Shown one piece after another: positions 21,654 through 45,640 of a DNA stretch of 45,640 bases. Both the position numbers and the translations under genes were made by a program. This stretch comes from an uncultured Gammaproteobacteria bacterium (GTDB taxonomy: Bacteria > Pseudomonadota > Gammaproteobacteria > Magnimaribacterales > D2472). The stretch lies in contig CAYVYQ010000002.1 of the NCBI GenBank assembly GCA_964455855.1, positions 1-45,640 of the forward strand, written 5' to 3'. Each line of letters opens with the position of its first letter. Position 1 is the stretch's first letter. The notes beneath the pieces were generated by a model. It searched no databases. It was not told the DNA's origin and worked only from the letters and a program-made list of their open reading frames with translations.

Positions 21654-21781
21654 ATTTTGAAAGTTACATTATCTTTTGAAGACTTCTATTGTACGAAATT
21701 ACAATGCAAAAACATACTTTAAGATTTGCAAATTTGGTTCGAGTTCTCCACAATCCATTCTTTTCATTAATAATAAAAAAT

Positions 21782-22255: not shown

Positions 22256-22274
22256 ACCATCGACAGGAGATCTT

Positions 22275-24113: not shown

Positions 24114-25016
24114 ATGAAAATACAATCACTAAGTTATCTGCTAATCGAAACAACGGATCTGCAGGAATGGGCCGATTATGCAAAAGATGTTGTTGGTTTA
24201 ATGAAAAATGATTCTCTAAGCGATGAGAATAATCTTTTTCTTCGAATGGATGAAAAATCTTTCAGATTTCATGTGATGACTGGTGATTCAAAAAGGTATC
24301 TTGCTGCCGGTTTCTCATTATCAGATAAATCTGCATTTGAAGATGCTAAAAATGAATTGGAGAAAGCAAATATTGCTTTTGAAGACTTGGGTGATGAAAT
24401 AGCAAAATTAAGATGTGTTGAGGAGTGTATTGGGCTAAATGATCCTGCAGGCAATAGACTGGAGTTATCTTATGGGAGCAAGGATTCAACTGAACCTTTT
24501 GTATCGACTCAGAATATCAAAGGGTTTATTACTAAAGGACTTGGTTTTGGTCATGTGGTTTTTGCTGCGCCTGACCTAGAGACTGCGCATAGATTTTATA
24601 TAGATGTTTTAGGTTTTGGAGATTCTGATTATATGAATTTTCCAATGGGGCCAGCTCCAGATGCACCCGAAGTTAAATTAAACTTTATGCATTGCGATAA
24701 CCCAAGACATCACACGGTTGCCTTGTATGAATCTCCAATTCCACCATCAGGACTCATACATACCATGGTTGAGGTGAATGACATTGATGAAGTTGGTTAT
24801 GGCCTTGATAGAGCCATGCAAAATAATATTCATATATCTTCTTCCCTAGGCAGGCATTCTAATGACATGATGGTTTCATTTTACATGCAGACACCATCAG
24901 GTTTTGACTTAGAATTTGGTTATGATGGATGGCAGGTAGATTGGGATAACTTTGAAACTCAAAAGAGCAAGATTCCAAGTTTTTGGGGCCATGCCTTCTC
25001 ACCGCCAGAAAATTAG
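24114..25016 (+). CDS. hsaC: Type I extradiol (vicinal oxygen chelate) dioxygenase, HsaC/BphC-like
   Basis: 300 aa with two VOC modules. Candidate metal ligands are in GFGHVVF, RHHTVAL and DLEFG. The steroid-specific assignment rests on context. Confidence 0.8.
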   Translation: MKIQSLSYLLIETTDLQEWADYAKDVVGLMKNDSLSDENNLFLRMDEKSFRFHVMTGDSKRYLAAGFSLSDKSAFEDAKNELEKANIAFEDLGDEIAKLRCVEECIGLNDPAGNRLELSYGSKDSTEPFVSTQNIKGFITKGLGFGHVVFAAPDLETAHRFYIDVLGFGDSDYMNFPMGPAPDAPEVKLNFMHCDNPRHHTVALYESPIPPSGLIHTMVEVNDIDEVGYGLDRAMQNNIHISSSLGRHSNDMMVSFYMQTPSGFDLEFGYDGWQVDWDNFETQKSKIPSFWGHAFSPPEN

Positions 25017-25018
25017 TA

Positions 25019-25888
25019 ATGAATAAAATAGTTTCTTACAAAGACATAATCGATCAGATATCCGATGGAATGACCATTGGTATTGGGGGTTGGGGTGCAC
25101 GTAGAAAACCTATGTCTTTAATTAGGGAGATTTGTCAATCAAATTTAAAAGATTTAACTATTGTTAGTTATGGCGGCCCTGATGTTGGGTTATTGTGCGC
25201 CCATAAAAAAGTTAAAAAATTAATTTTTGGCTTTGTTTCATTGGATATGATCCCTCTGGAAGCACATTTTCGACAAGCTCGTCAAAAAAATGAAATTGAA
25301 GTCATGGAACTAGACGAGGGAATGGTGCAATGGGGCTTGCGAGCAGCTGCCATGAACTTACCCTTTCTGCCAACTCGGGTTGGTCTAGGCACAGATGTTT
25401 TAACCCACAATCCTGAATTAAAATATGTGACATCTCCATACAACGATGCTGAAAAACTTGTTGCAATGCCAGCACTCAAACTTGATGTTGCATTAATTCA
25501 TGCCAATAAATCTGATGAAAAAGGCAATACTCAAATAGTTGGGCCTGACCCATTTTTTGATGAGCTCTTTGCAAGAGCTGCTAGCAAAACTTTTGTATCC
25601 GCTGAAGAGGTTGTATCCACTCAAGATTTAGGTGGTAAAGATGGTGCAATATTCAACAGATTTGAAAGAAGCCTTGTTACAGGAGTTTTGCATGCACCTT
25701 GCGGCGCCCATCCAACATCTTGTGCTCCAAACTATGGTTTTGATATTAAACATCTAAAAGAATATTCAGAAGCAGCTAAATCTTTTGATGAATACAGCTC
25801 TAAGTATTTGAATAAGAGCCATCAAGATTATATTGACTCTGTTGGAGGCTCTGAAGCAATTCTACAAATACCTTTACCACAATTTTAA
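25019..25888 (+). CDS. ipdA: CoA-transferase-fold ring-D hydrolase subunit A (IpdA-like)
   Basis: GMTIGIGGWGARRKPM, YGGPDVGLLC, FGFVSLD, MELDEGMVQWGLRAAAMNLPFLPTRVGLG and LVAMPALKLDVALIH closely follow the IpdA pattern as I recall it. Internal ATG preferred: the 24983 extension overlaps hsaC. Confidence 0.8.
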   Translation: MNKIVSYKDIIDQISDGMTIGIGGWGARRKPMSLIREICQSNLKDLTIVSYGGPDVGLLCAHKKVKKLIFGFVSLDMIPLEAHFRQARQKNEIEVMELDEGMVQWGLRAAAMNLPFLPTRVGLGTDVLTHNPELKYVTSPYNDAEKLVAMPALKLDVALIHANKSDEKGNTQIVGPDPFFDELFARAASKTFVSAEEVVSTQDLGGKDGAIFNRFERSLVTGVLHAPCGAHPTSCAPNYGFDIKHLKEYSEAAKSFDEYSSKYLNKSHQDYIDSVGGSEAILQIPLPQF

Positions 25889-25890
25889 AA

Positions 25891-26646
25891 ATGTCAGAAT
25901 CGATTACATTAGCAGAAATTTGTATTAGCGCATCTTCCAAGGCCTGGGAGGGTGAGGGAGAAATTCTTGCTACAGGCATTGGTTTGATTCCAAGAATTGC
26001 AGCTGGTCTAGCTAAGCTTACACATAATCCAGACTTGATGATGACAGATGGGGAAACTTATCTAATTTCTAAGCCAGCACCTATGGGCAAAAGAGATATT
26101 TCTCACGATCAAGTTGAGGGCTATATGAGTTACAGTCGTGTATTTGAAAATCTTTGGGGTGGCAAAAGACATGCCATGGTCACCCCAACGCAAATAGATT
26201 CCTTTGGGCAAACGAATATTAGCGCTATTGGCGATTACGATTCTCCAAAAGTGCAGCTGCTTGGTGTAAGAGGTTTTCCAGGTAATTTTATTAATCATAA
26301 AAATTCTATTTTTATCCCCAATCATTCTGTAAAAACCTTTGTGAAAGGCAAGGTAGATATGATTTCCGGAATGGGTTACCAGAACAAAGAGCTATCAAAT
26401 GGAAAGTTTGAAATTAAGCTTGTGGTAACTAATCTTGGTGTTTTTGATTTTAATGGAGAAGATAATAAACTTCAGCTACTTAGTTTGCATCCAGGTGTAA
26501 GTGTTGATGATGTTATTCAAAATACAGCTTTTGATGTAATTATTAACTCAGATACAGCCACACCAATGCCTTCGAATGAAGAACTTATTTGTATTCGAGA
26601 AGTCCTTGATCCTCAAGGGATTCGCAACTCAATTTTTGGAGAATAA
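25891..26646 (+). CDS. ipdB: CoA-transferase-fold ring-D hydrolase subunit B (IpdB-like)
   Basis: 251-aa beta-subunit-like protein 2 nt after ipdA. The pairing and size are typical of IpdAB. Confidence 0.75.
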   Translation: MSESITLAEICISASSKAWEGEGEILATGIGLIPRIAAGLAKLTHNPDLMMTDGETYLISKPAPMGKRDISHDQVEGYMSYSRVFENLWGGKRHAMVTPTQIDSFGQTNISAIGDYDSPKVQLLGVRGFPGNFINHKNSIFIPNHSVKTFVKGKVDMISGMGYQNKELSNGKFEIKLVVTNLGVFDFNGEDNKLQLLSLHPGVSVDDVIQNTAFDVIINSDTATPMPSNEELICIREVLDPQGIRNSIFGE

Positions 26647-26650
26647 CAAT

Positions 26651-27562
26651 ATGCCTAGAAGCAAACCTACAATCACATACAAAAAGAAAGATGAAATTGC
26701 CGTCATTTCTATGAATAGGCCTGAATATAATAATGCGCAAAATGGCAAGATGACTTATGACCTAGATAAAGCTTTTAAAAGAGCAATAGACGATGATGAG
26801 ATTAAGGTTATTGTGCTTAAAGGCAATGGCAAGCATTTTTCAGCAGGTCATGATATCGGCACACCTGGAAGAGATGTTGATGTTGAGTACGATCGAAAAT
26901 CTATGTGGTACGACCACACCAATAAGCCTGGTGGGGAGTTTTGGTATGTCAGAGAACAAGAAGTTTATTTAAACATGTGTAGGCGCTGGAGAGATATGCC
27001 TAAACCAACGATTGCCATGGTGCATGGTGCTTGTGTTGCAGGTGGGTGCATGTTGGCGTGGGTATGTGATCTTATTATTGCATCTGAGGATGCTTTCTTT
27101 GCTGATCCAGTTGTGCGTATGGGAATTCCAGGAGTTGAATATTTTGCTCATCCATATGAGTTAAATCCAAGAATTGCAAAAGAATTTCTATTTCTTGGTG
27201 AAAGGATGTCTTCATCAAGAGCTTATGAAATGGGCATGGTTAATAAGGTTGTTCCAATTGAGAATCTTGAGTCAACCGTTATGGAGATGGCCAAAAAAAT
27301 ATCTGCAATGCCAAGACTAGGTTTAACTTTAACCAAACAAGCCATCAACCATGTAGAGGATCTTCAGGGTAAACGCAACGGCATGGAAGCTGCTTTCGCA
27401 TGGCACCATTTTTCTCATGCGCATAATGATTTAACTACTGGTAATGTTTTATCAGGTTTTGATGCAAAGAAGATGGCCAAATCTCAACGTACTAAAACTA
27501 AAAAAACTCCTTCTAAAAAAACACCAGTTAAAAAGTCTGCTGCCAAAAAGAATAAAAAATAG
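26651..27562 (+). CDS. Crotonase-fold enoyl-CoA hydratase/hydrolase (EchA20-like) with lysine-rich C-terminal tail
   Basis: Crotonase motifs (LKGNGKHFSAGHDIG; MVHGACVAGGCMLAWVCDLIIAS). Sits next to ipdAB/ipdC as echA20 does. The last roughly 31 aa are KKMAKSQRTKTKKTPSKKTPVKKSAAKKNKK. Confidence 0.75.
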   Translation: MPRSKPTITYKKKDEIAVISMNRPEYNNAQNGKMTYDLDKAFKRAIDDDEIKVIVLKGNGKHFSAGHDIGTPGRDVDVEYDRKSMWYDHTNKPGGEFWYVREQEVYLNMCRRWRDMPKPTIAMVHGACVAGGCMLAWVCDLIIASEDAFFADPVVRMGIPGVEYFAHPYELNPRIAKEFLFLGERMSSSRAYEMGMVNKVVPIENLESTVMEMAKKISAMPRLGLTLTKQAINHVEDLQGKRNGMEAAFAWHHFSHAHNDLTTGNVLSGFDAKKMAKSQRTKTKKTPSKKTPVKKSAAKKNKK

Positions 27563-27571
27563 AAGAGAAAA

Positions 27572-28630
27572 ATTATTAATAAATTAACTGACATTTTAGG
27601 TTGTGATTATCCCATTATTCAAACAGCAATGGGTTGGGTGGCTATGCCTCAATTAGTTGCCGCAACTTCAAATGCTGGAGCTTTTGGATTTTTAGCTTTA
27701 GCTACTGCTGGACCTCAGGAAGCAATTGAAATGATAGATGAAACAATGAGCTTGACGGATAAACCCTTTGGAGTAAATTTTCACATGTTCCAACCAGGGG
27801 CTGATGAGATCGTTCAAGCAGTTTTGGATAAAAAAATTAAAGCTGTTAGTTATTCAAGATCTCCAACGCCAGATTATATACAAGCCTTTAAACAGCAGGG
27901 AGTTATCTGTATACCAACTGTTGGTGCGCTTAAACATGCAATAAAAGCAGAGCAGCTAGGTGCTGATGCTCTTGTCATACAAGGCTCAGAGGGAGGCGGT
28001 CATACCGGATCAACACCCACAACCTTGTTGCTTAGTTCTGTTCTTGAGCATGTTGATATTCCAGTCGTCGCTGCAGGTGGGTTTAGAGATGGATCAGGTT
28101 TAGCTGCATCTCTTGCATGGGGCGCATGCGGCATAGCGATGGGAACTCGCTTTATGATGACTCGAGAAAGTCCTGTTCCAGGTGAAACAAAGAAAGCATA
28201 TGTTTCAGCAGAGGTTGATGAAATCAAAATAACAAAAAAATTTGATGGCATGTCTCATCGCCTTATTTTCAACAAATACATAAAAAAAATAGATCGATCC
28301 AACCCCATTTCATTATTTTTAATGTCGGTTACTTCTGCCTGGAAATATAAGCAAATTACCAAAGCATCTTTTGGTGATCTCATTAAGTCTTTCTTTGCAA
28401 TGCTTAAGGGAGATGATTTAACTATTTCACAATCAATTATGTCTGCGAATAGCCCAGCAATTATTCAAAAGGCAATGGTGGAAGGTTCTCCTCATGAAGG
28501 CGCTATGCCATCTGGTCAAGTTGCTGGAATCATTACTAATCTACCTTCATGCAAAGAGCTGATTGATCAAATCATGGGAGAATTTAATATCGCTGCTGAA
28601 AACTTTAAAAAGATTGAGGAGAAATCATGA
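27572..28630 (+). CDS. ipdC: Nitronate-monooxygenase-fold enoyl reductase (IpdC-like); start codon uncertain
   Basis: YPIIQTAMGWVA, DKPFGVN, VIQGSEGGGHTG, AAGGF.DG.GLAA, GTRF and SGQVAGIITNLPSCKELIDQI match the IpdC/NMO family. The conserved N-terminal motif lies upstream of the first ATG (27629). The ATT at 27572 is only a tentative start (see findings). Confidence 0.8.
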   Translation: MINKLTDILGCDYPIIQTAMGWVAMPQLVAATSNAGAFGFLALATAGPQEAIEMIDETMSLTDKPFGVNFHMFQPGADEIVQAVLDKKIKAVSYSRSPTPDYIQAFKQQGVICIPTVGALKHAIKAEQLGADALVIQGSEGGGHTGSTPTTLLLSSVLEHVDIPVVAAGGFRDGSGLAASLAWGACGIAMGTRFMMTRESPVPGETKKAYVSAEVDEIKITKKFDGMSHRLIFNKYIKKIDRSNPISLFLMSVTSAWKYKQITKASFGDLIKSFFAMLKGDDLTISQSIMSANSPAIIQKAMVEGSPHEGAMPSGQVAGIITNLPSCKELIDQIMGEFNIAAENFKKIEEKS

Positions 28631-29388
28631 GTGTTGAAACTTCCATAAGTAATAATGTTGCTGAAATTATTTTAGATTGCCCTCCCGTAAATGCATTAAC
28701 TTCAACTGAATGGCTAGATTTAGCAATTAACATTGATAATCTTGCTCATAATAATGATGTTAGAGTTATTTTAATATCAGCTAGGGGTAAAGGTTTTTGT
28801 GCTGGTGCTGACATTAAAGAATTGCAAGAGGATCCAACAAAAATTACAGATGTTAATGATGGTTGTTGGAAAACAGCAAGAGCAATTCATGTTTCAAATG
28901 TTCCTGTAATATCAGCCTGTCATGGATTTATTCTTGGAGGAGGAATTTTACTTGCGGGAGCATCTGATATTGTTTTATCAACCGAGGATTCCTATTTTGG
29001 CTTACCTGAAATTGATAGAGGTGCGCTGGGTGGTGGAGCTCATCTAAGTAGGCTGTTTCCTCTTCAGGCAGTTAGAAAAATGATGTTTACTGGAAAGCCT
29101 ATTTCTGCTCAAAGAGCTTATGAATACGGTTCGATTGAGTCGTTGCATCCAGACCTAGAATCTGTGCGTGAAGCGGCACTTGTTATTGCAAATGATATAG
29201 CCTCAAAAAGTCCTACAGCAATGAATTTAGCTAAAAAAGCATTGAATGAAATTGAGAATGGCAATGTCGATGAGCATTATAAGTCAGAGCAAACCTTTAC
29301 TCTTGAGCTATATAAATCTAGGGATTCTCAAGAAGCTCGAGATGCATTTGTTGAAAAAAGAGACGCAGATTTTAAAGATGAAAATTAA
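28627..29388 (+). CDS. Enoyl-CoA hydratase/isomerase family protein
   Basis: 253-aa crotonase fold (ARGKGFCAGADIKE; ACHGFILGGGILLAGASDIV). ATGA overlap with the ipdC stop. Confidence 0.85.
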   Translation: MSVETSISNNVAEIILDCPPVNALTSTEWLDLAINIDNLAHNNDVRVILISARGKGFCAGADIKELQEDPTKITDVNDGCWKTARAIHVSNVPVISACHGFILGGGILLAGASDIVLSTEDSYFGLPEIDRGALGGGAHLSRLFPLQAVRKMMFTGKPISAQRAYEYGSIESLHPDLESVREAALVIANDIASKSPTAMNLAKKALNEIENGNVDEHYKSEQTFTLELYKSRDSQEARDAFVEKRDADFKDEN

Positions 29389-30529
29389 TTTTACAAAGGA
29401 ACAAAACCTATTTAGAGACGAGGTGCGCACTTGGTTAGAGAGCAATGTTCCCGAGACACCACTTTTATCATTGGATACTAAAGAAGGTTTTGAGCAACAT
29501 AGAGAGTGGGAAAAGACATTAAATCAAGGAAATTGGTCAATGGTTACTTGGCCCAAAGAGTATGGAGGAAGGGGCCTAGACCTAATTCAATGGTTAATAT
29601 TTGAAGAGGAGTATTATCGAGCCGAAGCTCCTACAAGAGTGAATCAAAATGGAGTTTTTTTACTTGGTCCAACTTTGATGGAATTTGGAACTCATGAGCA
29701 GAAATCTAAATTTTTAAACGCCATGGCTACTGGTGATCATATATGGGCACAAGGTTGGTCTGAGCCGGGTGCTGGAAGTGATATGGCTGCTATCAGAACA
29801 ACAGCAGTGCTAGAAGGCGATCATTACAAAATTAATGGGCAAAAAACTTGGTCTTCAAGAGCAGCATATGCTGACTGGACCTTTGGCTTATTCAGAACAG
29901 ATTTAGACTCCGAAAGACACAGAGGTTTATCTTTTATACTAGTGCCTTTGGATTTGCCTGGCATTACTGTAAGACCCATACCTCAATTGGATGGCGAACC
30001 AGGTTTTGCTGAAATATATTTTGATGATGTAAAAGTTCCTGTAGAAAATCTGATTGGTGGTGATGGTGAGGGCTGGAAGATTGCAATGGCAACAGCAGGA
30101 TTTGAGAGAGGTCTAATGCTAAGAAGCCCAGCACGTTTTCAACAAACAGCCGCAAAATTATTAGAGCTTTATCTTGCAAAGCAAGACCATTGCTCTCCAA
30201 TGATTCAGGCTAAGGTTGTTGAGGCTTGGGCTCAATCAGAGTCATATGCTTTAAGCATCTATCATACTGCATCAAAAATGCTTGATGGAGGCTCCATTGG
30301 CTCAGAATCTAGTTTAGGCAAGATTTTCTGGTCCGAACTTGATCACATGATGCATCAAACAGCATTGAAAATCTTGGGAGCTAGCGCAGAATTATCTCAA
30401 GAATCTAAAAATGATGCTGCTAAATGGATCAAGGGCTTCATGTTTTCTTATGCAGGACCAATTTATGCTGGCACCAATGAAATTCAAAAAAATATAATTG
30501 CTGAAAGGTTACTAGGGCTTCCTAGGTAG
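29378..30529 (+). CDS. Acyl-CoA dehydrogenase, catalytic (alpha-type) subunit
   Basis: WSEPGAGSD, GQKTWSS, and C-terminal YAGTNEIQKNIIAERLLG carrying the catalytic Glu. Internal ATG at 29378 chosen; it overlaps the upstream gene by 11 nt. Confidence 0.85.
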   Translation: MKINFTKEQNLFRDEVRTWLESNVPETPLLSLDTKEGFEQHREWEKTLNQGNWSMVTWPKEYGGRGLDLIQWLIFEEEYYRAEAPTRVNQNGVFLLGPTLMEFGTHEQKSKFLNAMATGDHIWAQGWSEPGAGSDMAAIRTTAVLEGDHYKINGQKTWSSRAAYADWTFGLFRTDLDSERHRGLSFILVPLDLPGITVRPIPQLDGEPGFAEIYFDDVKVPVENLIGGDGEGWKIAMATAGFERGLMLRSPARFQQTAAKLLELYLAKQDHCSPMIQAKVVEAWAQSESYALSIYHTASKMLDGGSIGSESSLGKIFWSELDHMMHQTALKILGASAELSQESKNDAAKWIKGFMFSYAGPIYAGTNEIQKNIIAERLLGLPR

Positions 30530-30533
30530 ACAA

Positions 30534-31571
30534 ATGAACTTTATATTTACAGAAGAGCAAATCCAATTTAAAGATGCCATCAAAGCTTTTTTGTCTGAAG
30601 AATGTACTCCCTCTTCAATCAGAGATGGCTGGCAAGCGAATAGTTCTTTTAATCTCGACCGATGGAAAAATTTAATTGAGCTAGGAGTCTTGAACTCCAA
30701 TCTTCCTCAAGACAAAGGTGGTTTAGGTATGGATCAAGTCACATTAGCTTTGATGGTTGAAGAGATGGGTTATGCTGGATTACCTGAACCAGTGGCAGAG
30801 CAAACTTTTTTAGTAAACGATGTAATTCCTTTCCTACCTAAAAATATTACTGAAGCTATTGAGAGTAATTACAATGATGGTACTCAATACATAGCTCTTG
30901 CGCATCCTTTAGCTCCAAATTCACTGTTTTTAAATAACTCAGCCGGACTTATTCTGCTTGATAATTCTGAATGCAAGTTCATTGCAAAAGATGATATAGA
31001 TTTTGAAATCATGTCCTCTAATGATCCTTCTAGAGAGCTCTTCAAGATAAATTCTATTAATAATGCCATTTGTGCATCTGAAAATTTTGATGAGATTAAT
31101 TCTGCCATTTCAGCAAGAGGAGCATTAATGACAGCAGCTTTGTTGATTGGATTGGCCCAAAAAATGATAGATTTAAGCTCAGTTTATGTTTTAGATAGAA
31201 CTCAATTTGGAAAACCCATCGGATCCTTTCAGGCTGTTAAACATATGTTAGCTGATGTGGCAGTTAAAATTGAGTTTGCAAAACCTGCTGTTTATAGAGC
31301 AGCTTATTCTTTGTCTGAAAATAATCCAAAATCCGCTTTACATTGCGCTCACGCAAAATTGATGTGTTCCCAAGCTGCTGAACTTGCATGTAAAAATAGT
31401 ATTCAGGCTCATGGAGCAATGGGCTATACCTGGGAGATGGATCTTCATATATATATGAGAAAAGCCTGGTCGATGATGGCTTGTTGGGGCAATGAAGACA
31501 GGCAACAAGATATAATTTTTAAGACACTGTCTTCCACCAGTGAAGAGCTTGGTGTTTTATATACTTTTTAG
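30534..31571 (+). CDS. Acyl-CoA dehydrogenase family, beta-type subunit lacking the C-terminal catalytic Glu motif
   Basis: 345-aa ACAD fold (FGKPIGSFQAVKHMLADV; QAHGAMGYTWEMDLHIYMRKA) without a GTNEIQ-type catalytic base segment. Paired 4 nt after the alpha subunit, as in steroid alpha2beta2 ACADs. Confidence 0.75.
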   Translation: MNFIFTEEQIQFKDAIKAFLSEECTPSSIRDGWQANSSFNLDRWKNLIELGVLNSNLPQDKGGLGMDQVTLALMVEEMGYAGLPEPVAEQTFLVNDVIPFLPKNITEAIESNYNDGTQYIALAHPLAPNSLFLNNSAGLILLDNSECKFIAKDDIDFEIMSSNDPSRELFKINSINNAICASENFDEINSAISARGALMTAALLIGLAQKMIDLSSVYVLDRTQFGKPIGSFQAVKHMLADVAVKIEFAKPAVYRAAYSLSENNPKSALHCAHAKLMCSQAAELACKNSIQAHGAMGYTWEMDLHIYMRKAWSMMACWGNEDRQQDIIFKTLSSTSEELGVLYTF

Positions 31572-31583
31572 GGAGACTTAGGT

Positions 31584-34210: not shown

Positions 34211-34240
34211 CTAAATTAAAAATTTAAAAGTGGGGAAAGT

Positions 34241-35014: not shown

Positions 35015-35025
35015 TGAAATAGACC

Positions 35026-36375: not shown

Positions 36376-36379
36376 TTCG

Positions 36380-37189: not shown

Positions 37190-37191
37190 AT

Positions 37192-37977
37192 ATGAATTTA
37201 AACACTATAAATGATATAGCTTCAGAGCTATTTTTGGCTTTAAAAAACCAAGAAACAGTTCAGCCACTCTCTGACAAATATGTTGAGATAGATATTAATG
37301 ATGCTTATCAAATTTCTCGAAAGTTTCTTTCATTACGAGAAGACCAAGGTGAAAAGGTTATTGGAAAGAAAATTGGCGTTACAAGTCCAGTTGTTCAAGA
37401 AATGCTTGGGGTCAACCAACCAGATTTTGGTTTTTTAACAGACAATATGCAAGTTAAAAATAAATCAAATTTCTCAATAAAAGATTCTTTGATTCAACCT
37501 AGAGCAGAAGCTGAAATTGCTTTTATTTTAAAAGAAGATATTCAAGGACCTGGAATTACAAAGGAAGATGTCATTTTAGCAACTGACAAAATTATGCCAT
37601 GTTTTGAAATTGTTGACTCACGAATTGATGATTGGAAAATTAAAATTCAAGATACTATCGCTGATAATGCATCATGTGGAATCTTCGTTTTAGGGGAAGG
37701 ATCATCTTCTCCTGAAAAGTTTCCAATGGATGAGTTGGAGGTAATTGTTCATAAGAATGGAGAATTTTTGTCATCAGGCTTTGGTTCTGCGGTTCAAGGT
37801 CATCCAGCAGAAGCAGTTGCATGGCTTGCAAATACTTTGGGTGAGTATGACATCCCGTTGCTCAAAGGTGAGTTTATTTTATCTGGATCTTTAGTTCCTC
37901 TTGAGCCTGCAATAGCTGGGGATAGTTTTTCATTAGAACTCAAAGGTGTTGGAACCTGTGAAATTAATTTTATTTAA
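37192..37977 (+). CDS. hsaE: 2-keto-4-pentenoate (2-hydroxypentadienoate) hydratase, HsaE/BphH/MhpD-like
   Basis: 261-aa FAH-fold hydratase pattern ([21 protein letters not shown]), 2 nt after hsaD. Confidence 0.82.
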
Positions 37978-37979
37978 TT

Positions 37980-38903
37980 ATGAGTAAAGTCAAATGTGCA
38001 ATTATTGGATCTGGAAATATAGGCACGGATCTGATGTTAAAAATTATCAAAACCTCTCAATCATTATCTCTAAATGGAGTAATAGGAATTGACCCTGAGT
38101 CTGAAGGCCTAGCAATGGCAAAATCTCAAAATATTGCGATTTCATCAACAGGCTTGGAGGGCTTTATGGAAATGGATGAATACCAAGAAACTGAAATATT
38201 TTTTGATGCAACATCTGCTGGTGCTCATAAGAATCATCACGACTTAATTATCAATGATGGCAAGCAGATGATAGACCTTACCCCAGCAGCAATAGGCCCA
38301 TATTGCGTCCCAGTTGTTAATTTAACTGAACATTTAAAAGAAAAGAATGTAAATATGGTGACCTGTGGAGGCCAAGCCACCATCCCAATGGTTGCAGCGG
38401 TTAATCAAGTTTCTAGTGTGAAATATGCTGAGATAGTTGCATCTGTTTCTTCAAAGTCTGCCGGGCCAGGAACGAGAGCGAACATCGATGAATTTACTCA
38501 AACAACTAAGCTAGGGCTTGAAAAAGTTGGAGGAGCAGACAGAGCCAAGGCAATCATAGTGCTTAATCCTGCTGAACCCCCTCTATTAATGAGAAATACT
38601 GTTTTTACTTTGTGTGATCCTGTTGATCAACAGTTAGTTAAAGATAGCATTGAGGCAATGGTAGAGCGTGTTCAGTCTTACGTACCAGGATATCGATTAA
38701 AGCAAGAAGTTCAATTTGAAAGATTTGGTTCTAATAATCCATGCCTTATTCCTGGCTATGGTGAGTTTGAGGGATTGAAAGCGTCCATTTTCCTAGAAGT
38801 TGAGGGTGCTGGGCACTATTTGCCAACCTATGCAGGAAATTTAGATATTATGACTTCCGCTGCTATGGGAACCGCACAGGAATTAATCAAACTGAACTCA
38901 TGA
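37980..38903 (+). CDS. hsaG: Acetaldehyde dehydrogenase (acylating), HsaG/BphJ/MhpF-like
   Basis: [13 protein letters not shown]-terminus, active-site region [10 protein letters not shown], and length of 307 aa. Confidence 0.9.
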
Positions 38904-39916
38904 GTAAGCTTTATATACAAGATGTCACGCTAAGAGATGGTATGCACGCAATCAGACATCAATATGGTTTAGATCATGTAATTGAGATTGCAAAAGCATT
39001 AGATGAGGCTAAAGTTGATGCCATTGAGGTAGCTCATGGAGATGGTTTGTCTGGATCTTCTTTTAATTATGGTTTTGGAGCTCATACAGATAAAGAATGG
39101 ATTGGAGCAGTTGCTGAGAAATTAAATCATGCAAAACTTACAACTCTTATTTTGCCTGGAATTGCAATTAAAGAGGATCTTAAGTGGGCATGGGATCTTG
39201 GGGTTAGATCGGTCAGAGTTGCAACTCACTGCACCGAGGCAGATGTTTCTAAGCAGCACATAGAGTTTGCAAGAGAATTAGGCATGGATACCATTGGTTT
39301 TTTGATGATGTCACATATGACCTCACCATCAAACTTAGCTGAGCAAGCAAAATTAATGGAGTCCTATGGAGCTGAATGTGTATATGTTGTTGATTCGGGC
39401 GGCGCATTGAGCATGGAAGATGTAGCAGATAGATTTAAAGCTTTTAAAGATACCTTAGATTCTAAAACTCAAACAGGCATGCATGCCCATCATAATTTAT
39501 CTTTAGGAGTTGCTAATTCAATTATTGCTGTTGAAAATGGAGCAAATAGAGTTGATGCAAGTCTTGCTGGGATGGGTGCCGGAGCAGGGAATGCCCCTCT
39601 TGAAGTTTTTATTGCTGCAATTGATAGGTTGGGGTGGGAGCATGGAACAGATCTCTTTAAATTAATGGATGCTGCTGAAGAGCTTGTTCGCCCATTGCAG
39701 GATAGGCCCGTTAGAGTAGATAGAGAAACTTTAACATTGGGTTATGCTGGGGTTTATTCATCCTTTTTAAGGCATGCTGAATCAGCTGCTGAAACTTATG
39801 ATCTTGATACAAGAGAAATTCTTGTTGAGCTAGGAAAGAGAAAGATGGTGGGCGGTCAAGAAGATATGATTGTCGATGTAGCCTTAGATTTATTGAAAAA
39901 GAAATCTCAATCATGA
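38900..39916 (+). CDS. hsaF: 4-hydroxy-2-oxovalerate aldolase, HsaF/BphI/MhpE-like
   Basis: [11 protein letters not shown]-terminus and [12 protein letters not shown] metal site. ATGA overlap with hsaG. Confidence 0.9.
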
Positions 39917-40785
39917 AAATTGGCATGACCCTCCCGGTCATGGAACCTGATTTATCCAGGCAAGACCTAGAAGATTGGACCTTGCGAGTAGACGCTGGCC
40001 CATGGTCGCATATTGCTTTAGGAGAAAGAATTTTATTTCCCAACCCTGAATTCATCTCTACTTTAAGTGCAGTAGCTGCATGGACCAAGCGTGTGGAGAT
40101 CATTGCAACCATATCTGTTTTGACAATGCATAACCCAATATTGAGCGCTAAACAGTTTGCAACAATTGATATGATCTCAGAGGGTAGGTTTACCCTTGGT
40201 GTAGGGGTTGGGGGCAGAGAAGAAGACTATAATGCTATTGGTTCCACATGGTCTGATAGAAGGTGGGCTACACTTTCTGATCGTGTTAAAACCATGCAAT
40301 CAGTTTGGTCAAAGGAATATCATCCTAGTTTAGGGCCAACACCCTTTTCTATGAATGGACCTCAAATATTGGCAGGCGCAGTAGGTCCTAAGGCCATGGA
40401 AATGTCAGCTGATTTTGCAGATGGCTTGGCTGGATTTTCATTTAATGCAGATATTGAAGAAATTAAAGATTCATTTAATCGAGTGCAAAAAGCATTTAAG
40501 GAAAAAAATAAATCTCCTAGATTGGTCACCAGTTTCTGGTTTGGGCTAGGTGAATCTGCTCGACCAGACATTCAAATCCACCTTGAACGGTATTTAAGTT
40601 GGATGGGTGATGATCTTGCAAGAGATTTAGCAAAAACAGCAGGTTTTTCAGGTAGTCAAAGTGATTTGAACGATTTTCTCTTATTGGTCAAAGCTGCTGG
40701 CGCAACAGATGTAATTTTGGTGCCTACATCAAAAAACATTGAACAACTAATCTTAGCAGAAGAGGTGATTGCTGGATTTAGCTAA
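39913..40785 (+). CDS. Luciferase-like monooxygenase (LLM) class flavin-dependent oxidoreductase
   Basis: 290-aa TIM-barrel LLM pattern ([18 protein letters not shown]). ATGA overlap with hsaF. Confidence 0.7.
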
Positions 40786-40897
40786 AAAATAATTATTTTT
40801 ATAAAAATTGACAAATTAAATCCATCTGTTACTCGTTGATTATTTAATGTATTTATATAATAGTTATTACTAGTTTTATAAATATAGGGAGAATATT
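40786..40897. promoter_or_regulatory. Internal AT-rich control region of the cluster
   Basis: This 112-nt gap is the only sizeable gap inside the cluster. It holds the 16-nt all-AT palindrome AAAAATAATTATTTTT (40785-40800), TTTTATA at 40797 and 40874, TTGACA at 40808, TATAAT at 40856 and SD AGGGAGA before the TTG at 40898. The TTGACA/TATAAT spacing is non-canonical. Confidence 0.4.
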
Positions 40898-41335
40898 TTG
40901 ACCGATCAAGAGCTAATAGCACCTGAGCTTCCAGAGCAAAAAGATCCTTCGACTAGTAGTTTAGAGCCTGGTTGGTACAAGGTTGCAAATAGCGATGATA
41001 TTGCTTCAAAGTCAGCAGTTCAAATTGATGACTTCCCAACTCAAATCGTGGTTTGGAGAGGAGAAGATTCAGTTTTAAGAGCTTTAGATTTGTATTGCAA
41101 GCATATGGGAGCTTCTTTAGCTTGTGGTGAGGTTGATGAAAACAGCATTAGATGTCCATTCCATGCTTGGCGCTGGGCAGGAAACGGGCAATGCGATCAA
41201 ATCCCTTATGCAAAAAAAATTCCTACCAAGGCTGTAACTCGCTCATGGGAAGTAAGTGAAGATAATGGGTTGGTATATGTTTGGTTTGATAAAGATCAAA
41301 ACCCAGCAGATCCAGATGGAAAAAAGTTTAATTAA
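40898..41335 (+). CDS. Stand-alone KshA-type Rieske [2Fe-2S] domain protein
   Basis: 145 aa, TTG start with SD AGGGAGA. Rieske ligands C67-x-H69 ... C86-x-x-H89 (YCKHMG ... RCPFHAWRW, nt 41096-41164). GNGQCDQIPYAKKIP...TRSW...VWFD resembles the KshA N-terminal domain and ends at the domain boundary. Confidence 0.8.
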   Translation: MTDQELIAPELPEQKDPSTSSLEPGWYKVANSDDIASKSAVQIDDFPTQIVVWRGEDSVLRALDLYCKHMGASLACGEVDENSIRCPFHAWRWAGNGQCDQIPYAKKIPTKAVTRSWEVSEDNGLVYVWFDKDQNPADPDGKKFN

Positions 41336-41350
41336 AGATAGGAGATAGCA

Positions 41351-42196
41351 ATGAGTGATTTACCAGATAGGTTTCCAAGAGGGTGGTTTGTTTTAGGTCA
41401 TCAAAGAGATTTTCCCATTGGAGAAACAAAAATAATTTTTGGGTTCAATAATAAAATATCAATTTCAAGAAATGAGGATAGATCTGTATCGGTGGATGTT
41501 GGAGGAGATTCCTCATGGCCAGTATTGGAATTAAATCAAATGGTTATGGTATGGCATGATGTTGAGAAGAAAGCTCCTGATTTCACTCCTGATAAAATAG
41601 AAGAATGTTATTCAGATGATTGGTCAGACTATGGTATGGCAAGTTTCTTGGTCAAGAATAATTGTCGAGAGCTGATTGATAACATGGCTGATAAAGGTCA
41701 TTTTGGTCCGGTTCATCAAGCTCCATTTGAGGGGTTTTGGAATGAGGCCAAAGACCATACTTACACACAAGAAATGACAGCAGATAGCCCTATCTTAGGA
41801 AGAGACTTATTTTCTCAAGCAAGATATGAAGGACCTGCATACATGACGACTTACATGAGTGCTGTTCATGATGGAGCAAAGGTTGAGAGCAGGCTTTTGG
41901 TGAGCCACATACCCTTAACGCTAACTTCTTTTGTAATTAATTTTGGAGTGATGGTAAAAAAAGTACCTGGTATGTCTGCTGAAGATGAGGCTGCCTTTAT
42001 CCAAGGTTATGTTGATGCTAATAATTTTGCTTTTGGCCAAGACGTAGCCATTTGGGAAAATAAGATCTATATTCCTGATCCTGTAGTTTGTGATGGAGAT
42101 GGACCTTTGCATAAGCTCAGAAAATGGTACGGACAGTTCTTGGTTAATAGAGTTGATATTCCTCCTGGCTTAGATTTGGAAAAAAGAGAATTTTAA
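41351..42196 (+). CDS. KshA-like catalytic (non-heme iron) subunit with a ligand-less remnant Rieske domain
   Basis: 281 aa with SD TAGGAGA. The N-terminus RFPRGWFVLGHQRDF is KshA-like, but the following roughly 50 residues contain no Cys-x-His / Cys-x-x-His. The catalytic region NCRELIDNMADKGHFGPVH and QDVAIWENK keeps the 2-His-1-Asp positions. C-terminal LHKLRKWYGQF. Confidence 0.78.
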   Translation: MSDLPDRFPRGWFVLGHQRDFPIGETKIIFGFNNKISISRNEDRSVSVDVGGDSSWPVLELNQMVMVWHDVEKKAPDFTPDKIEECYSDDWSDYGMASFLVKNNCRELIDNMADKGHFGPVHQAPFEGFWNEAKDHTYTQEMTADSPILGRDLFSQARYEGPAYMTTYMSAVHDGAKVESRLLVSHIPLTLTSFVINFGVMVKKVPGMSAEDEAAFIQGYVDANNFAFGQDVAIWENKIYIPDPVVCDGDGPLHKLRKWYGQFLVNRVDIPPGLDLEKREF

Positions 42197-42219
42197 TCTC
42201 TCAACTAATTTATTAAAAA

Positions 42220-42687
42220 GTGAAGCTCTCACTCGACGACCTTGATCATAAGATTCTGCAAATTCTTGAAGAAGATGGACGTGCACCAGCAAAATTTATT
42301 GCAGAGAAACTATCTGTAAATGAAGTAACCGTTAGCAAACGACTGACAAAAATTATTGACGGCGGTTTTTGCAAAATTATTGCAATCGCTGATTTTGAAA
42401 AATGTGGTTATGACTACTTACTCCCAATCGGCATAAGAGTTCAGGGTGATAAGTTGGAGGAGGTTGCAGAGATTCTTTCTCAGCAAAAAGAAGTATTTAG
42501 TGTAAATGTTGTTAGTGGAATTCAGGATATTGAAATTCTGTGTGCTACGCAAAGCTTAAATGAGACAAAACTATTTTTAGATGAAACCTTGCCATCTATT
42601 GTTGGAATTAAAAGCATTGCTCCTGCAATTGCATCAAATGTATACAAATTTGAAACAGATTGGACTCCTTTTGCAAATGAAGCTTGA
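42220..42687 (+). CDS. Lrp/AsnC family transcriptional regulator (copy 1)
   Basis: GTG start. LDDLDHKILQILEEDGRAPAKFIAEKLSVNEVTVSKRL HTH followed by a RAM/ACT-like C-terminal domain. Confidence 0.85.
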   Translation: MKLSLDDLDHKILQILEEDGRAPAKFIAEKLSVNEVTVSKRLTKIIDGGFCKIIAIADFEKCGYDYLLPIGIRVQGDKLEEVAEILSQQKEVFSVNVVSGIQDIEILCATQSLNETKLFLDETLPSIVGIKSIAPAIASNVYKFETDWTPFANEA

Positions 42688-43132
42688 TCAAACTGATAAA
42701 AAAATTATTCAATTGCTCGGTGCTGATGCAAGAATGTCAAACAATCAAATGGCTAAGGTCATTGGCGTAACCGAAGGTACAGTTCGCAATAGAATCCAAA
42801 AACTTATTAAAAATAAAGTTATTAAAATCTCCGTTATAAATAATATAAATCGCATGGAGAATCCATCACTTGCTTTCGTGGGATTAGATGTTGAAACTCG
42901 AGCAAAAGATTCTGTTGCCAAAGCTCTTTCAAAAATGAAGGAGGTAAGGTTCGTTTCAACTCTGTTGGGCCGTCATGATCTTATGGTCTTCATTCTTGCT
43001 GAAGATGTAACCAAGCTTTCTAAAGTTTTATATGAAGAAATTTCTTCTTTGCCTGGTGTAAGATTTTCAGAATCATCTATTGGATTAAAGTATTACAAAT
43101 ATGATTATCGATGGGCCAGGATATTAGATTGA
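42677..43132 (+). CDS. Lrp/AsnC family transcriptional regulator (copy 2)
   Basis: The ATG at 42677 gives MKLDQTDKKIIQLLGADARMSNNQMAKVIGVTEGTVRNRIQKL plus a RAM-like domain. Overlaps copy 1 by 11 nt. The longer 42581 start adds only out-of-frame overlap with copy 1. Confidence 0.85.
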   Translation: MKLDQTDKKIIQLLGADARMSNNQMAKVIGVTEGTVRNRIQKLIKNKVIKISVINNINRMENPSLAFVGLDVETRAKDSVAKALSKMKEVRFVSTLLGRHDLMVFILAEDVTKLSKVLYEEISSLPGVRFSESSIGLKYYKYDYRWARILD

Positions 43133-44676
43133 AGACATTAAATACATTCACTATTCCTGCGCTCATTAAATTGCAGGCTGAGAATTTTTCTGCAAAGCCT
43201 GCCCTAATTTCTGAGAATGAGACATTATCTTTTGCAGATCTAGATAATCTATCAACCAATATTGCTACCCATTTGATAAATCTTGGGATCTTGCAGGGTG
43301 ATAGGGTAGCGATCTGGGCACCTAACATGAATGAATGGGTGCTAGCAGCTATCGCTATTCATAAAGCTGGAGGAGTTTTAGTTCCAATTAACACGCGAAT
43401 GAAAGGCAAAGAAGCTGCCTATATTTTGAATAATTCTGAAGCTAAAATATTATTCAGTGTCAAAACTTTTCTTGGTATAGATTACTTTAAGTTACTTGAA
43501 AAAGAGGACTTGCCCCATCTAGAACATCAAATTGCCCTTGATGAAGATAATGCCGAAGACTCTAATCTAGCTTTTTCATATTTAAAAGAACAAACCTTGA
43601 ATCTTGAAATGCCTGAAGTCAGTGAAACAGACATGGCTGATATTATTTTTACTTCTGGAACTACCGGTAAGCCTAAAGGAGTAATTTCTTCTCATTTACA
43701 AAACATCAAAGTATTTGATTATTGGTCAACATACATTGGCTTAACTGAAAATGATCGCTATTTAATTGTAAATCCATTTTTTCATACCTTTGGCTATAAG
43801 GCTGGATGGCTTGCTGCTGTAATGAAGGGTGCAACAGCATATCCATGCCCAGTATTTGATGCAGATAAAATCATTGAGACGATCAATGAGCAAAAAATAT
43901 CAATGCTACCAGGCCCGCCAACTCTTTATCAGTCAATTCTCACGAGCAAATTAATAAACACCCTGAACATTTCTTCTCTGAGATTAGGGGTAACTGGAGC
44001 AGCATCTATTCCAGTTCAGCTAATCAAAGATATGAAAGAAAAATTAGGCTTTGAGACTGTAATTACGGCATATGGGCTTACAGAAAGCACGGGCGTTGTA
44101 ACCATGTGCACACCCAATGATGACTATGAGACCATTGCTACAACCTCGGGTTGTGCTATTGCAGATGTAGAAGTTAAATGTGTGAATCAGGATGGGGAAG
44201 AGGTTGGGATAGATGAGCCTGGAGAGATATTGGTAAGAGGTTATAACATTACTCAAGGTTATTTTAATAATCCAGAGGCCACTCAAGAGGCGATAGACAG
44301 AGATGGTTGGTTACACACTGGCGATATTGGAATGCTCGATGCTAATGGCTATATAAAAATAACCGATAGAAGCAAGGACATGTTTATTGTGGGTGGATTT
44401 AATGCATATCCTGCGGAGATAGAAAATATTCTTTGCGATCATCCCGCAATCTCTCAAGCAGCTGTAGTTGGTATTGAGGATGAAAGGATGGGTGAGGTTG
44501 CCAAAGCTTTTATTATCCTGAAACCCGATCAAGATTTAGATGCTGATTCTCTGCTCCAATGGTCCAAAGATAATATGGCTAACTATAAGGTTCCAAGAGA
44601 GGTGGAGTTTGTGAGAGAATTACCCACAAATGCTGCTGGAAAAATAATGAAATACCTTTTAAAGGATGAATCATGA
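43111..44676 (+). CDS. AMP-dependent acyl-CoA synthetase (FadD3-like by context)
   Basis: 521 aa. AMP-binding motif TSGTTGKPKGV, YGLTE, GWLHTGD, and a C-terminal PxxxxGK motif. Overlaps Lrp copy 2 by 22 nt. Confidence 0.85.
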   Translation: MGQDIRLKTLNTFTIPALIKLQAENFSAKPALISENETLSFADLDNLSTNIATHLINLGILQGDRVAIWAPNMNEWVLAAIAIHKAGGVLVPINTRMKGKEAAYILNNSEAKILFSVKTFLGIDYFKLLEKEDLPHLEHQIALDEDNAEDSNLAFSYLKEQTLNLEMPEVSETDMADIIFTSGTTGKPKGVISSHLQNIKVFDYWSTYIGLTENDRYLIVNPFFHTFGYKAGWLAAVMKGATAYPCPVFDADKIIETINEQKISMLPGPPTLYQSILTSKLINTLNISSLRLGVTGAASIPVQLIKDMKEKLGFETVITAYGLTESTGVVTMCTPNDDYETIATTSGCAIADVEVKCVNQDGEEVGIDEPGEILVRGYNITQGYFNNPEATQEAIDRDGWLHTGDIGMLDANGYIKITDRSKDMFIVGGFNAYPAEIENILCDHPAISQAAVVGIEDERMGEVAKAFIILKPDQDLDADSLLQWSKDNMANYKVPREVEFVRELPTNAAGKIMKYLLKDES

Positions 44677-45640
44677 GAATTGTTATTTCCAAAGACAATG
44701 ACAAGTTATATAGATCTAAGTTACTTTCCTTTGATCCTTCAATGGAAATTATTGCACTTCACCCTCTAGACTCTAATGATCCAGACTGGGAGACGATCCC
44801 AGAATCAGATGCTTTATTTATGTGTTATCAGTTTTTATTTGCGGCTAGAGATAATCCAAAAATTCATGATGCTTTATTAAGTTTAGCCAAACGAATGAAA
44901 TTTCTTCAAAGTGGCTTTGCTGGAATGGATGCACCAATACTCCAAGATGTTTTGAAAATAGAAAATGTTCACATTGCTAATGCAAGCAGTGTTTATGCAA
45001 TTCCAATTGCCCATTATGTTTTCTCACAAATCCTAAGATGGAACAAGAGAATCGATCATCACATTGAATATCAGCAATCTAAAAACTGGGCTCCAATAGC
45101 AGGAGATGGCGAGCTTACTAATAAAACTCTAGTCATTCTTGGTTATGGGGGCATTGGCAGCCAAGTGGCAAAGATAGGCAAAGCTTTTGGAATGAGGGTA
45201 ACTGGGATAAGACGCAATCCTCAAGATGATGAGCATGCTGATGAAGTGTTGGGACTGGATCGGTTTGAAGAATTGCTTCCTCTAACTGATTACTTAGTAC
45301 TTTCATTGCCAGATAGCTCTCAAACAAGAGATATTATCAATGCAGATATCCTAGAAAAACTTAATAGCTCTGCCATGATAATTAATGTGGGTCGGGGCAC
45401 TGCAATTAATGAGGATGATCTTACCCACGCATTGAATGATGGAAAAATTGCTGCTGCAGCATTAGATACCACTAAGGTTGAACCTCTTGATGCTAACTCT
45501 TCACTTTGGACGGCTAAGAATTGTTTTATTTCAGCCCATGATTCAGCCCACTCTCTGTTATCTTTAGAGCGAGCATTTGAGTTATTTTTTCAAAATATTA
45601 AGAATATTCAAAATGGCCAACCAATAAAAAACCTTTACTC
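44673..45640 (+). CDS. D-isomer-specific 2-hydroxyacid dehydrogenase family protein (3' partial, runs off window)
   Basis: Not in the supplied ORF track because there is no stop in the window. My own translation from the ATG at 44673 (ATGA overlap with the ligase stop) gives MRIVISKDN..., NAD motif LGYGGIGSQVAKIG, INVGRGTAINEDDL and a catalytic-His region SAHDSAHS. Confidence 0.8.
   Translation, partial: MRIVISKDNDKLYRSKLLSFDPSMEIIALHPLDSNDPDWETIPESDALFMCYQFLFAARDNPKIHDALLSLAKRMKFLQSGFAGMDAPILQDVLKIENVHIANASSVYAIPIAHYVFSQILRWNKRIDHHIEYQQSKNWAPIAGDGELTNKTLVILGYGGIGSQVAKIGKAFGMRVTGIRRNPQDDEHADEVLGLDRFEELLPLTDYLVLSLPDSSQTRDIINADILEKLNSSAMIINVGRGTAINEDDLTHALNDGKIAAAALDTTKVEPLDANSSLWTAKNCFISAHDSAHSLLSLERAFELFFQNIKNIQNGQPIKNLY

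Follow-up and report, generated by a model that had tools for sequence, protein, structure and literature searches.

The steroid-degradation (tes/scd) cluster of Comamonas testosteroni TA441 is large, extending over about 100 kb or more, and carries tesA1A2 (hsaAB), tesH (kstD) and tesI together with LuxR/LysR-type regulators. In Mycobacterium tuberculosis and Rhodococcus jostii RHA1 the counterparts are the KstR2 regulon and the hsaADCB, hsaEGF and kshA genes. Here, we describe a cluster of about 21.5 kb that occupies positions 24114 to 45640 of a 45 640-nucleotide stretch of the uncultured gammaproteobacterial contig CAYVYQ010000002.1 (GenBank assembly GCA_964455855.1; this whole stretch is referred to as the window). 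The host is a member of SAR86 (order Magnimaribacterales). Probably, the region is a native chromosomal cluster for catabolism of the steroid nucleus that combines meta-cleavage of ring A with degradation of HIP (rings C and D), and it contains a KshA-like oxygenase that is encoded by two genes (40898–42196).

Steroid-ring capacity in SAR86 is a correct reading of the window, but it has already been published. The sections of Bergstrand et al. (2016; PMC4810484) covered here list SAR86E as a putative steroid degrader and credit all three SAR86 draft genomes with a testosterone/cholate-type pathway of the proteobacterial kind. In the covered part of a 2024 study (PMC11582366), a few genera of the SAR86 'Suzuki' family have nearly all of the genes for converting androstenedione-like compounds to HIP and 2-hydroxyhexadienoate. 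The same part of its Table S5 gives, per genome, about one kstD, one to two tesI, about two to three KSI, about 0.75–1.07 hsaA, 1.6–2 kshA and 0.5–1 fadD3 (the latter in about half of the genomes of one genus); hsaC is also counted, while hsaD is nearly absent (K16050: 0, 0.2 and 0 per genome), and kshB and hsaB are not mentioned there. These KEGG orthology (KO) counts are reported to place kstD and hsaA elsewhere in the genomes of these genera. The lineage and the genes are the same as in our cluster. The published inventories differ in that, in the parts covered, they give presence or absence only (from BLAST or KO counts), and no description of the operon structure, the two-gene KshA, the Lrp/AsnC gene pair or the accessory genes was found in those parts of either paper.

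The content of the cluster parallels that of the M. tuberculosis/RHA1 system. Both have FadD3, IpdAB, EchA20, a FadA6-type thiolase, HsaEGF and a KshA-type oxygenase, and IpdC, IpdF, the α/β acyl-CoA dehydrogenase (ACAD), HsaC and HsaD have candidate counterparts in the SAR86 cluster; both also have the local ipdA–ipdB–echA20–ipdC adjacency, which resembles Rv3551–3553. The SAR86 cluster differs in lacking the TetR repressors KstR and KstR2, in place of which there are two Lrp/AsnC genes, in its split KshA, and in the absence of hsaAB, kshB, kstD and fadE31/32 from the cluster. It also has an extra cytochrome P450 (not CYP125/142-like), an EthD-like protein, a luciferase-like (LLM) oxidoreductase and a 2-hydroxyacid dehydrogenase, and its genes all lie on one strand with near-zero spacing. 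Unlike the TA441 cluster as it is generally described, a comparison of layout and gene names and not of sequences, the SAR86 cluster spans only about 21.5 kb and is without tesA1A2, tesH and tesI. The two systems are alike in combining meta-cleavage of ring A with subsequent CoA-dependent degradation of rings C and D, the type to which SAR86 has been assigned (PMC4810484).

Organization, host and conservation

The cluster comprises 24 co-directional genes on the forward strand that form two operon-like units. A preliminary description of the window had proposed 18 genes, a 112-nucleotide gap and six more, with junctions that range from an 11-nucleotide overlap to a 30-nucleotide gap and include several ATGA overlaps; all of this was reproduced by the open reading frame (ORF) listing and by a junction table for which start codons were picked by homology. 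In the first unit (24114–40785; junctions of −11 to +30 nucleotides) the widest overlap is at 29378/29388, the widest gap is at 34211–34240 and the ATGA overlaps number four (at 28627, 32735, 38900 and 39913). The EchA20/IpdC junction measures 66 nucleotides from the first ATG (27629) or 9–12 nucleotides from a conserved ATT. The gap between the units spans 40786–40897, and the six genes that follow are joined at +15, +23, −11, −22 and −4 nucleotides, the last being truncated at the edge of the window. This 2-hydroxyacid dehydrogenase gene is the final one of the cluster in relatives, where the gene for ThrRS or variable, unrelated genes come next.

The G+C content is alike in the cluster (38.2%) and in the rest of the window, which lies upstream (37.4%). 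The AT-richness is therefore that of the genome itself; the cluster does not look foreign and is compositionally native to the host chromosome. The upstream flank encodes housekeeping proteins (UvrB, PurL, AlaRS, aspartokinase and HflX).

An earlier guess at an AT-rich, streamlined marine planktonic gammaproteobacterium was right, the host being SAR86. With the P450 of the cluster as query, species-representative genomes yielded 29 SAR86 or SAR86-like loci at 79–98% identity, among them SAR86E (98% identity to the P450 of contig AMWX01000005) and a complete 1.33-Mb SAR86 chromosome. When all of the window proteins were mapped on these loci, the same 24-gene order was observed in about 28 SAR86 species-level genomes, and the sole difference in gene content was the loss of the Lrp/AsnC pair in three. 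The window is about 85–90% identical in nucleotide sequence to the nearest genome representatives and hence derives from a further species of the same SAR86 group.

Genes predicted for ring C/D degradation

The FadD3-family HIP-CoA ligase gene (43111–44676; all genes of the cluster are on the + strand) passes the cut-off of the curated FadD3 equivalog model (NCBIfam NF005801; 693 bits, cut-off 657), which bears out its earlier designation as FadD3-like; an exact-sequence look-up of the protein, made with a view to extending the contig, returned no record. The IpdA-like α subunit (25019–25888; Pfam CoA_trans), a predicted COCHEA-CoA (ring C) hydrolase, scores 262 and 240 bits against the IpdA structures 6CO6 and 6CON and 104 bits against glutaconate CoA-transferase. 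The IpdB-like β subunit (25891–26646) scores 189 and 188 bits against solved IpdB and 64 bits against GctB, and the pair thus falls outside the glutaconate/3-oxoacid CoA-transferases. Directly 3′ of ipdB is the gene for an EchA20-like crotonase (26651–27562), which is predicted to hydrolyse ring D and has a C-terminal tail rich in Lys. It matches PRK08290 (445 bits, cut-off 280), which we take to be the model for Rv3550; a MenB match was also seen. The next gene encodes an IpdC-like flavin mononucleotide enzyme of the NMO/FabK family (27575–28630; Pfam NMO, 235 bits). FabK is its top NCBIfam match (205 bits) and is also the closest characterized homologue of IpdC (PMC5380842), so that a gene of this family fits IpdC.

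The genes that follow encode candidate enzymes for side-chain shortening. A second crotonase (28627–29388; PRK07938, 305 bits, cut-off 260) is a predicted enoyl-CoA hydratase for the β-oxidation round. The acyl-CoA dehydrogenase encoded at 29378–30529, a putative α subunit of a steroid-type α2β2 ACAD of the IpdE1/ChsE4 kind, is nearest among solved relatives to ChsE4 (4X28_A, 186 bits) and IpdE1 (Tcur3483, 159 bits) and has all three ACAD Pfam domains. In the IpdE2-like β subunit (30534–31571) only the N- and C-terminal ACAD domains are found by Pfam and the middle domain is absent; IpdE2 is its top NCBIfam match, at 116 bits and below the cut-off of 450. These two genes are candidates for the α/β pair that was first described. 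Misassignment of the α subunit, with HsaA as its true identity, was considered and rejected, as no HsaA match was obtained in NCBIfam or among solved structures (E ≤ 1e-20). Next are the genes for a FadA6-like thiolase (31584–32738; PRK07801, 644 bits, cut-off 591) and an IpdF-like short-chain dehydrogenase/reductase (SDR; 32735–33517) that matches PRK07831 (382 bits, cut-off 336), a model presumably linked to Rv3559c.

Genes predicted for ring A cleavage

The first gene of the cluster encodes an HsaC/TesB-like type I extradiol dioxygenase (24114–25016) that is predicted to cleave the catecholic ring A in the meta position. It scores 286 bits against the NCBIfam model for BphC (cut-off 366) and 263 bits against that for HsaC (cut-off 450), while its best solved relative is M. 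tuberculosis HsaC (2ZI8, 207 bits), compared with 177 bits for BphC (1HAN). The HsaD/TesD-like meta-cleavage-product hydrolase (36380–37189) likewise remains under both cut-offs (HsaD 181 bits, cut-off 400; BphD 175 bits, cut-off 462), with BphD ahead of HsaD among solved relatives (158 and 143 bits). From their sequences, the two proteins clearly are a type I extradiol dioxygenase and a meta-cleavage-product hydrolase.

The remaining ring A genes encode an HsaE-like 2-oxopent-4-enoate/2-hydroxyhexadienoate hydratase (37192–37977; TIGR03220, 355 bits, below the cut-off of 409), an HsaG-like acylating aldehyde dehydrogenase (37980–38903; equivalog TIGR03215, 441 bits, cut-off 282) and an HsaF-like 4-hydroxy-2-oxoacid aldolase (38900–39916; equivalog TIGR03217, 589 bits, cut-off 286). 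Enzymes of these three types are found in meta-cleavage pathways in general and not only in those for steroids. Of the 9,10-seco set proposed for the window, HsaE, HsaG and HsaF stand, the dehydrogenase and the aldolase passing their cut-offs, whereas HsaC and HsaD cannot be separated from BphC and BphD by score.

A two-gene KshA-like oxygenase

To our knowledge, the Rieske and mononuclear-iron domains of characterized Rieske oxygenase α subunits are always on one chain. In the window, what had been listed as a KshA-like gene is indeed KshA-like in sequence and fold, but it consists of two ORFs and not of one gene. ORF1 (40898–41335; 145 residues, TTG start) encodes a stand-alone KshA-type Rieske [2Fe–2S] protein (Pfam Rieske, 80 bits) that aligns to KshA residues 24–141 (111 bits) and conserves both CxH...CxxH pairs. 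ORF2 (41351–42196; 281 residues) encodes a Rieske-less KshA catalytic protein, in which a remnant β-domain is followed by the KshA_C mononuclear-iron domain (Pfam KshA_C, 195 bits). It aligns to KshA residues ∼24–61 and 121–352, and comparison with fused homologues reveals the deletion of exactly the cluster-binding segment of about 50 residues. His117, His122 and Asp231 are invariant and the DNMAD motif is kept.

By sequence, the best solved relative of both ORFs is KshA. The AlphaFold model of ORF2 (pLDDT 80, pTM 0.81) has a confidently predicted small β-domain at residues 11–69, and the six best Foldseek matches to this model are all KshA (TM scores of 0.88–0.91), compared with about 0.68 for SxtT and GxtA. 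The ORFs thus do not fall among unrelated Rieske oxygenases. Compared with the KshA structures (PDB entries 2ZYL, 4QCK, 4QDC and 4QDF), the Rieske ligands are retained in ORF1 and the His-His-Asp iron ligands and the DNxxDxxH motif in ORF2. The difference is that characterized KshA is a single polypeptide with both metal centres; here they are on separate proteins, and the SAR86 catalytic protein retains merely a cluster-less stump of the Rieske domain.

ORF1 and ORF2 have the same nearest fused relatives (P0112 and P0118), and the N-terminus of ORF2 is weakly and colinearly similar to ORF1, as would fit a single ancestral gene that underwent partial duplication and fission. Over the full length, the fused relatives found for ORF2 do not exceed 42% identity. 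The conserved split also occurs outside SAR86. A Rieske and KshA_C pair with 51% identity is found at the loci L039 and L040 in a different cluster that has fadD3 and a 2-hydroxyacid dehydrogenase gene and also (within 1–13364) encodes a BphC-like dioxygenase and a 1179-residue POR/DUF6537 oxidoreductase. Another pair (60% identity) is located beside a TonB receptor gene (L041, 9496–10849). A search of 1.84 billion representative proteins identified about 20 further clusters of 250–337 residues that align end to end with ORF2, and in the two of these proteins that were inspected in context (L043, 6001–6951; L045, 6001–6912) no Rieske ORF is adjacent.

On the basis of sequence and model, the two-gene oxygenase probably works like KshA without the canonical single-polypeptide architecture. 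We lean, with some reserve, towards the view that 40898–42196 encodes an obligate heteromeric Rieske oxygenase with its metal centres on separate chains. It would probably derive from a fused kshA-like gene that was partly duplicated and split, and would belong to a wider, unrecognized family of Rieske-less KshA_C proteins, some of them without an adjacent Rieske partner. No description of a split or Rieske-less KshA was found in the literature searched, and the two-gene KshA-like oxygenase appears to be undescribed.

Proposed pathway

The following scheme is predicted at every catalytic step and for every substrate by homology to the Mycobacterium/Rhodococcus and Comamonas pathways. A 3-keto-Δ1,4 steroid would be made by KSI, TesI and KstD encoded elsewhere in the genome. 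The two-polypeptide KshA-like oxygenase, together with a reductase, would carry out 9α-hydroxylation, upon which ring B would open and ring A aromatize. Another hydroxylation would come next, HsaA being reported elsewhere in the genome; ring A would then be cleaved by the HsaC-like dioxygenase and the product split by the HsaD-like hydrolase into 2-hydroxyhexadienoate and HIP. The dienoate would yield pyruvate and propionyl-CoA through the HsaE-, HsaG- and HsaF-like enzymes. The FadD3-family ligase would activate HIP, and the propionate side chain would be shortened by the α/β ACAD, crotonase, SDR and thiolase. The IpdF-like and IpdC-like enzymes may then form an enone, with ring D opened by the EchA20-like crotonase and ring C by IpdAB.

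Alternative explanations

Several observations weigh against a complete steroid pathway. KshB, HsaAB, KstD, FadE31/32, a ferredoxin and uptake genes are all absent from the 45.6-kb window (the absence of hsaA/hsaB, kshB and kstD, noted previously, was confirmed across the window proteins), and KshB, KstD and HsaAB are not encoded directly downstream of the cluster in relatives either; kstD, hsaA and tesI are reported elsewhere in these genera on the basis of published KO calls. Scores of the HsaC-like and HsaD-like proteins against steroid- and biphenyl-type enzymes are nearly the same and lie below all equivalog cut-offs, so that for a steroid specificity one has to look to their gene context. 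The nearest fused homologues of the KshA-like pair are at most 42–55% identical, and in the structural alignment ORF2 is only about 28% identical to characterized KshA. The cluster is present in RNA libraries, as contigs from four marine metatranscriptome runs span the whole region at at least 95% identity; however, these are assemblies without strand information, which are no proof of regulated expression, and their depth is flat with flanks and spacers covered, so that DNA may be included. The link between SAR86 and steroids is one of homology and synteny, not of experiment. The missing KstD, HsaAB and KshB and the ambiguous HsaC-like and HsaD-like scores could be accommodated by a cluster that serves a non-steroid alicyclic or terpenoid substrate, or that scavenges opened steroid fragments (HIP-like hydrindanone acids or seco-steroids) from dissolved organic matter, with no complete 9,10-seco pathway. 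The P450, LLM, EthD and 2-hydroxyacid dehydrogenase genes, which have no counterpart in the model pathway, and the recurrence of a related split-KshA/FadD3/2-hydroxyacid dehydrogenase module in the different gene set at L039 would also be in keeping with such a role. Nevertheless, we regard it as unlikely. The joint occurrence of FadD3, IpdAB, EchA20, IpdC and IpdF is that of the set characterized for HIP catabolism, with roles as given by Crowe et al. (2017; PMC5380842), the FadD3 equivalog cut-off is passed, and the covered KO tables of PMC11582366 put kstD, tesI, KSI and hsaA in the same genera. A literature search that was not aimed at this question turned up no orthologous cluster with a non-steroid substrate. 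The original 9,10-seco/HIP interpretation of the window is supported by the FadD3 equivalog, the IpdAB scores, the EchA20-, IpdC-, IpdF-, IpdE1/E2- and FadA6-like neighbours and the likeness to KshA.

For the two-gene oxygenase, the fact that two adjacent ORFs jointly span one known protein could in principle reflect a pseudogene or a sequencing or assembly artefact, with a stop or frameshift in one gene. This reading is refuted by the comparative data and its probability is negligible: two ORFs are present in 30 independent loci, where their relative frame is 0, 1 or 2, the spacer between them varies from −17 to +76 nucleotides and the stop codons differ; the median pairwise ratio of nonsynonymous to synonymous substitution rates (0.15 for ORF1 and 0.06 for ORF2) indicates purifying selection on both; ORF2 has its own segment deletion and its own ribosome-binding site; and more than 100 KshA_C-only metagenomic protein clusters have a length of 280–281 residues. 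A functional enzyme that is not a 9α-hydroxylase deserves more weight, although we consider it doubtful. Such an enzyme might act elsewhere on a sterol or seco-steroid, by hydroxylation or demethylation, or might use another substrate, in line with the separate lineage formed by the pair, with the occurrence of Rieske-less KshA_C proteins in non-steroid-looking contexts (L041, L043 and L045) and with a weak match of ORF1 to a sterol 4β-methyl monooxygenase model (44 bits). Against this, no other solved enzyme comes nearly as close in sequence and fold as KshA, and the pair is inside the ring-degradation cluster near fadD3 in all relatives. Moreover, no other kshA-type gene is counted for these genera in the covered part of the published tables, where K15982 is given at 1.6–2 copies, which we read as ORF1 plus ORF2.

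The ipdC start and the EchA20-like tail

The evidently translated N-terminus of the IpdC-like protein (…IINKLTDILGCDYPIIQTA…) lies upstream of the first ATG (27629) and is conserved with synonymous changes in all relatives. No ATG, GTG or TTG is available for this upstream N-terminus in the window region 27560–27631. The simplest reading of a conserved N-terminus with no standard start is an ATT start at 27572 or 27575, and ipdC thus probably starts, judging from the sequence comparison, at one of these two codons, which follow the EchA20 stop by 9–12 nucleotides and share its frame. In some relatives a GTG takes this place, and in L029 the ATT ATT is immediately preceded by a second stop. The ATT start of ipdC appears to be undescribed. 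Read-through of the stop to give an EchA20–IpdC fusion, conceivable from the shared frame in all relatives, was rejected: the stop varies between TAA and TAG, there is a second stop in L029, and a GTG directly follows the stop in some relatives. The last 30 or so residues of the EchA20-like protein itself (∼27470–27559; KKMAKSQRTKTKKTPSKKTPVKKSAAKKNKK) form a Lys-rich tail that extends beyond the PRK08290 match and is present, at varying length, in all SAR86 relatives.

Regulators and the spacer element

The only regulator genes in the window are two of the Lrp/AsnC family, located between the KshA_C and FadD3 genes. Regulator 1 (42220–42687) has Pfam HTH_AsnC-type and AsnC_trans_reg domains and NCBIfam Lrp-type matches, and regulator 2 (42677–43132) has the same two Pfam domains. 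The absence of TetR regulators (KstR/KstR2) from the window, previously noted, was confirmed, whereas the Lrp/AsnC genes had gone unnamed. The two proteins are likely to be local regulators, and such a pair as the sole regulators of a cluster of this kind appears to be undescribed. The pair is missing from three otherwise syntenic loci (L023, L028 and L030), one of which is the complete genome CP097973.1.

The 112-nucleotide spacer contains a conserved promoter/operator-like element on the + strand (40808–40860; TTGACA ... TACTCGTTGATTA ... TATATAATAGT), as judged from an alignment of about 25 relatives. The strong conservation of this element supports a separate promoter/operator for the second unit, and it may combine the functions of operator and promoter. 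Its hexamer spacings do not fit a standard σ70 promoter and it was not called by the consensus promoter scan. The 13-mer of the element has a single exact occurrence in the window, with no second copy upstream of hsaC or elsewhere. In the scan of the window for σ70 promoters and terminators, shuffled sequence gave more promoter-like sites than the real one and no terminator was convincing; such a scan is uninformative in DNA this rich in A and T.

Accessory and neighbouring genes

Five further genes encode conserved accessories of the cluster to which no pathway step is assigned. Four of them (P450, LLM oxidoreductase, EthD-like protein and 2-hydroxyacid dehydrogenase) had been noted as extra members at the outset and each is matched by Pfam. 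The EthD-domain protein (33518–34210; Pfam EthD, 39.9 bits, residues 127–216) is encoded at the same position in all relatives and is fast-evolving; the best 120 of 420 matches in a homologue search were all near-identical SAR86 sequences and gave no functional lead. The adjacent second SDR (34241–35014), with generic SDR matches only, is a candidate 3-hydroxyacyl-CoA or hydroxysteroid dehydrogenase. These two genes (33518–35014) are 76–84% identical where their neighbours are mostly 90–99% identical (L008–L011, L018 and L024–L027), which suggests local recombination or allele replacement within the cluster.

The cytochrome P450 (35026–36375; Pfam p450, 234 bits) has as its best solved relatives an unnamed cytochrome P450 (9WAT, 154 bits), CYP120A1 (149 bits) and CYP51 (140 bits), and by sequence is distantly CYP120/CYP51/CYP170-like and not CYP125-like. 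Its sole match in a non-SAR86 genome (L036, 43% identity) lies among housekeeping genes and was set aside as uninformative. The LLM oxidoreductase (39913–40785) matches Pfam Bac_luciferase (101 bits) and TIGR03619 (104 bits, below the cut-off). The cluster closes with a gene, truncated at the edge of the window, for a protein of the D-2-hydroxyacid dehydrogenase family (44673–45640; Pfam 2-Hacid_dh_C, 158 bits); in relatives it has 324–326 residues, and such a gene also follows fadD3 in the distant locus L039. In one SAR86 sublineage, genes for a DUF4440 (SnoaL-like) protein and a 380-residue FAD_binding_3 monooxygenase, candidate extra ring-modifying enzymes, are inserted between the 2-hydroxyacid dehydrogenase gene and thrS (L005, 15111–16932; L006, 5766–7587).

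Upstream of the cluster, a 532-residue flavin oxidoreductase of the CrtI/CrtO family is encoded on the reverse strand (17810–19408; CrtO model, 270 bits, far under the cut-off), followed on the forward strand by a 271-residue protein with no Pfam or NCBIfam match (19496–20311). Just upstream of the cluster is a pair of mutually overlapping genes (21689–23072) for a 4HBT_2 thioesterase-like protein and an SDR, the latter having a mycolate reductase-like protein as its best match and a weak match to 7α-hydroxysteroid dehydrogenase. An opposite-strand gene for a metallo-β-lactamase-fold hydrolase stands between this pair and the cluster. The thioesterase-like protein and the SDR could be peripheral lipid or steroid enzymes.

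Implications

SAR86 accounts for a few percent of surface-ocean bacteria. A compact and conserved steroid-ring pathway in part of this group bears on the marine recycling of sterols and related alicyclic carbon, a point that is already in print. What the window adds is organization: a minimal 21.5-kb layout for ring degradation, a regulatory arrangement that is not of the TetR type and a set of conserved accessory enzymes. The naturally split KshA is the one item that a specialist might not expect, and it merits further study. Should it prove to be a functional Rieske oxygenase made of two proteins, it would show that both metal centres can be provided in trans, and the split enzyme would be relevant to the evolution of cross-subunit electron transfer and to the engineering of KshA-type hydroxylases.

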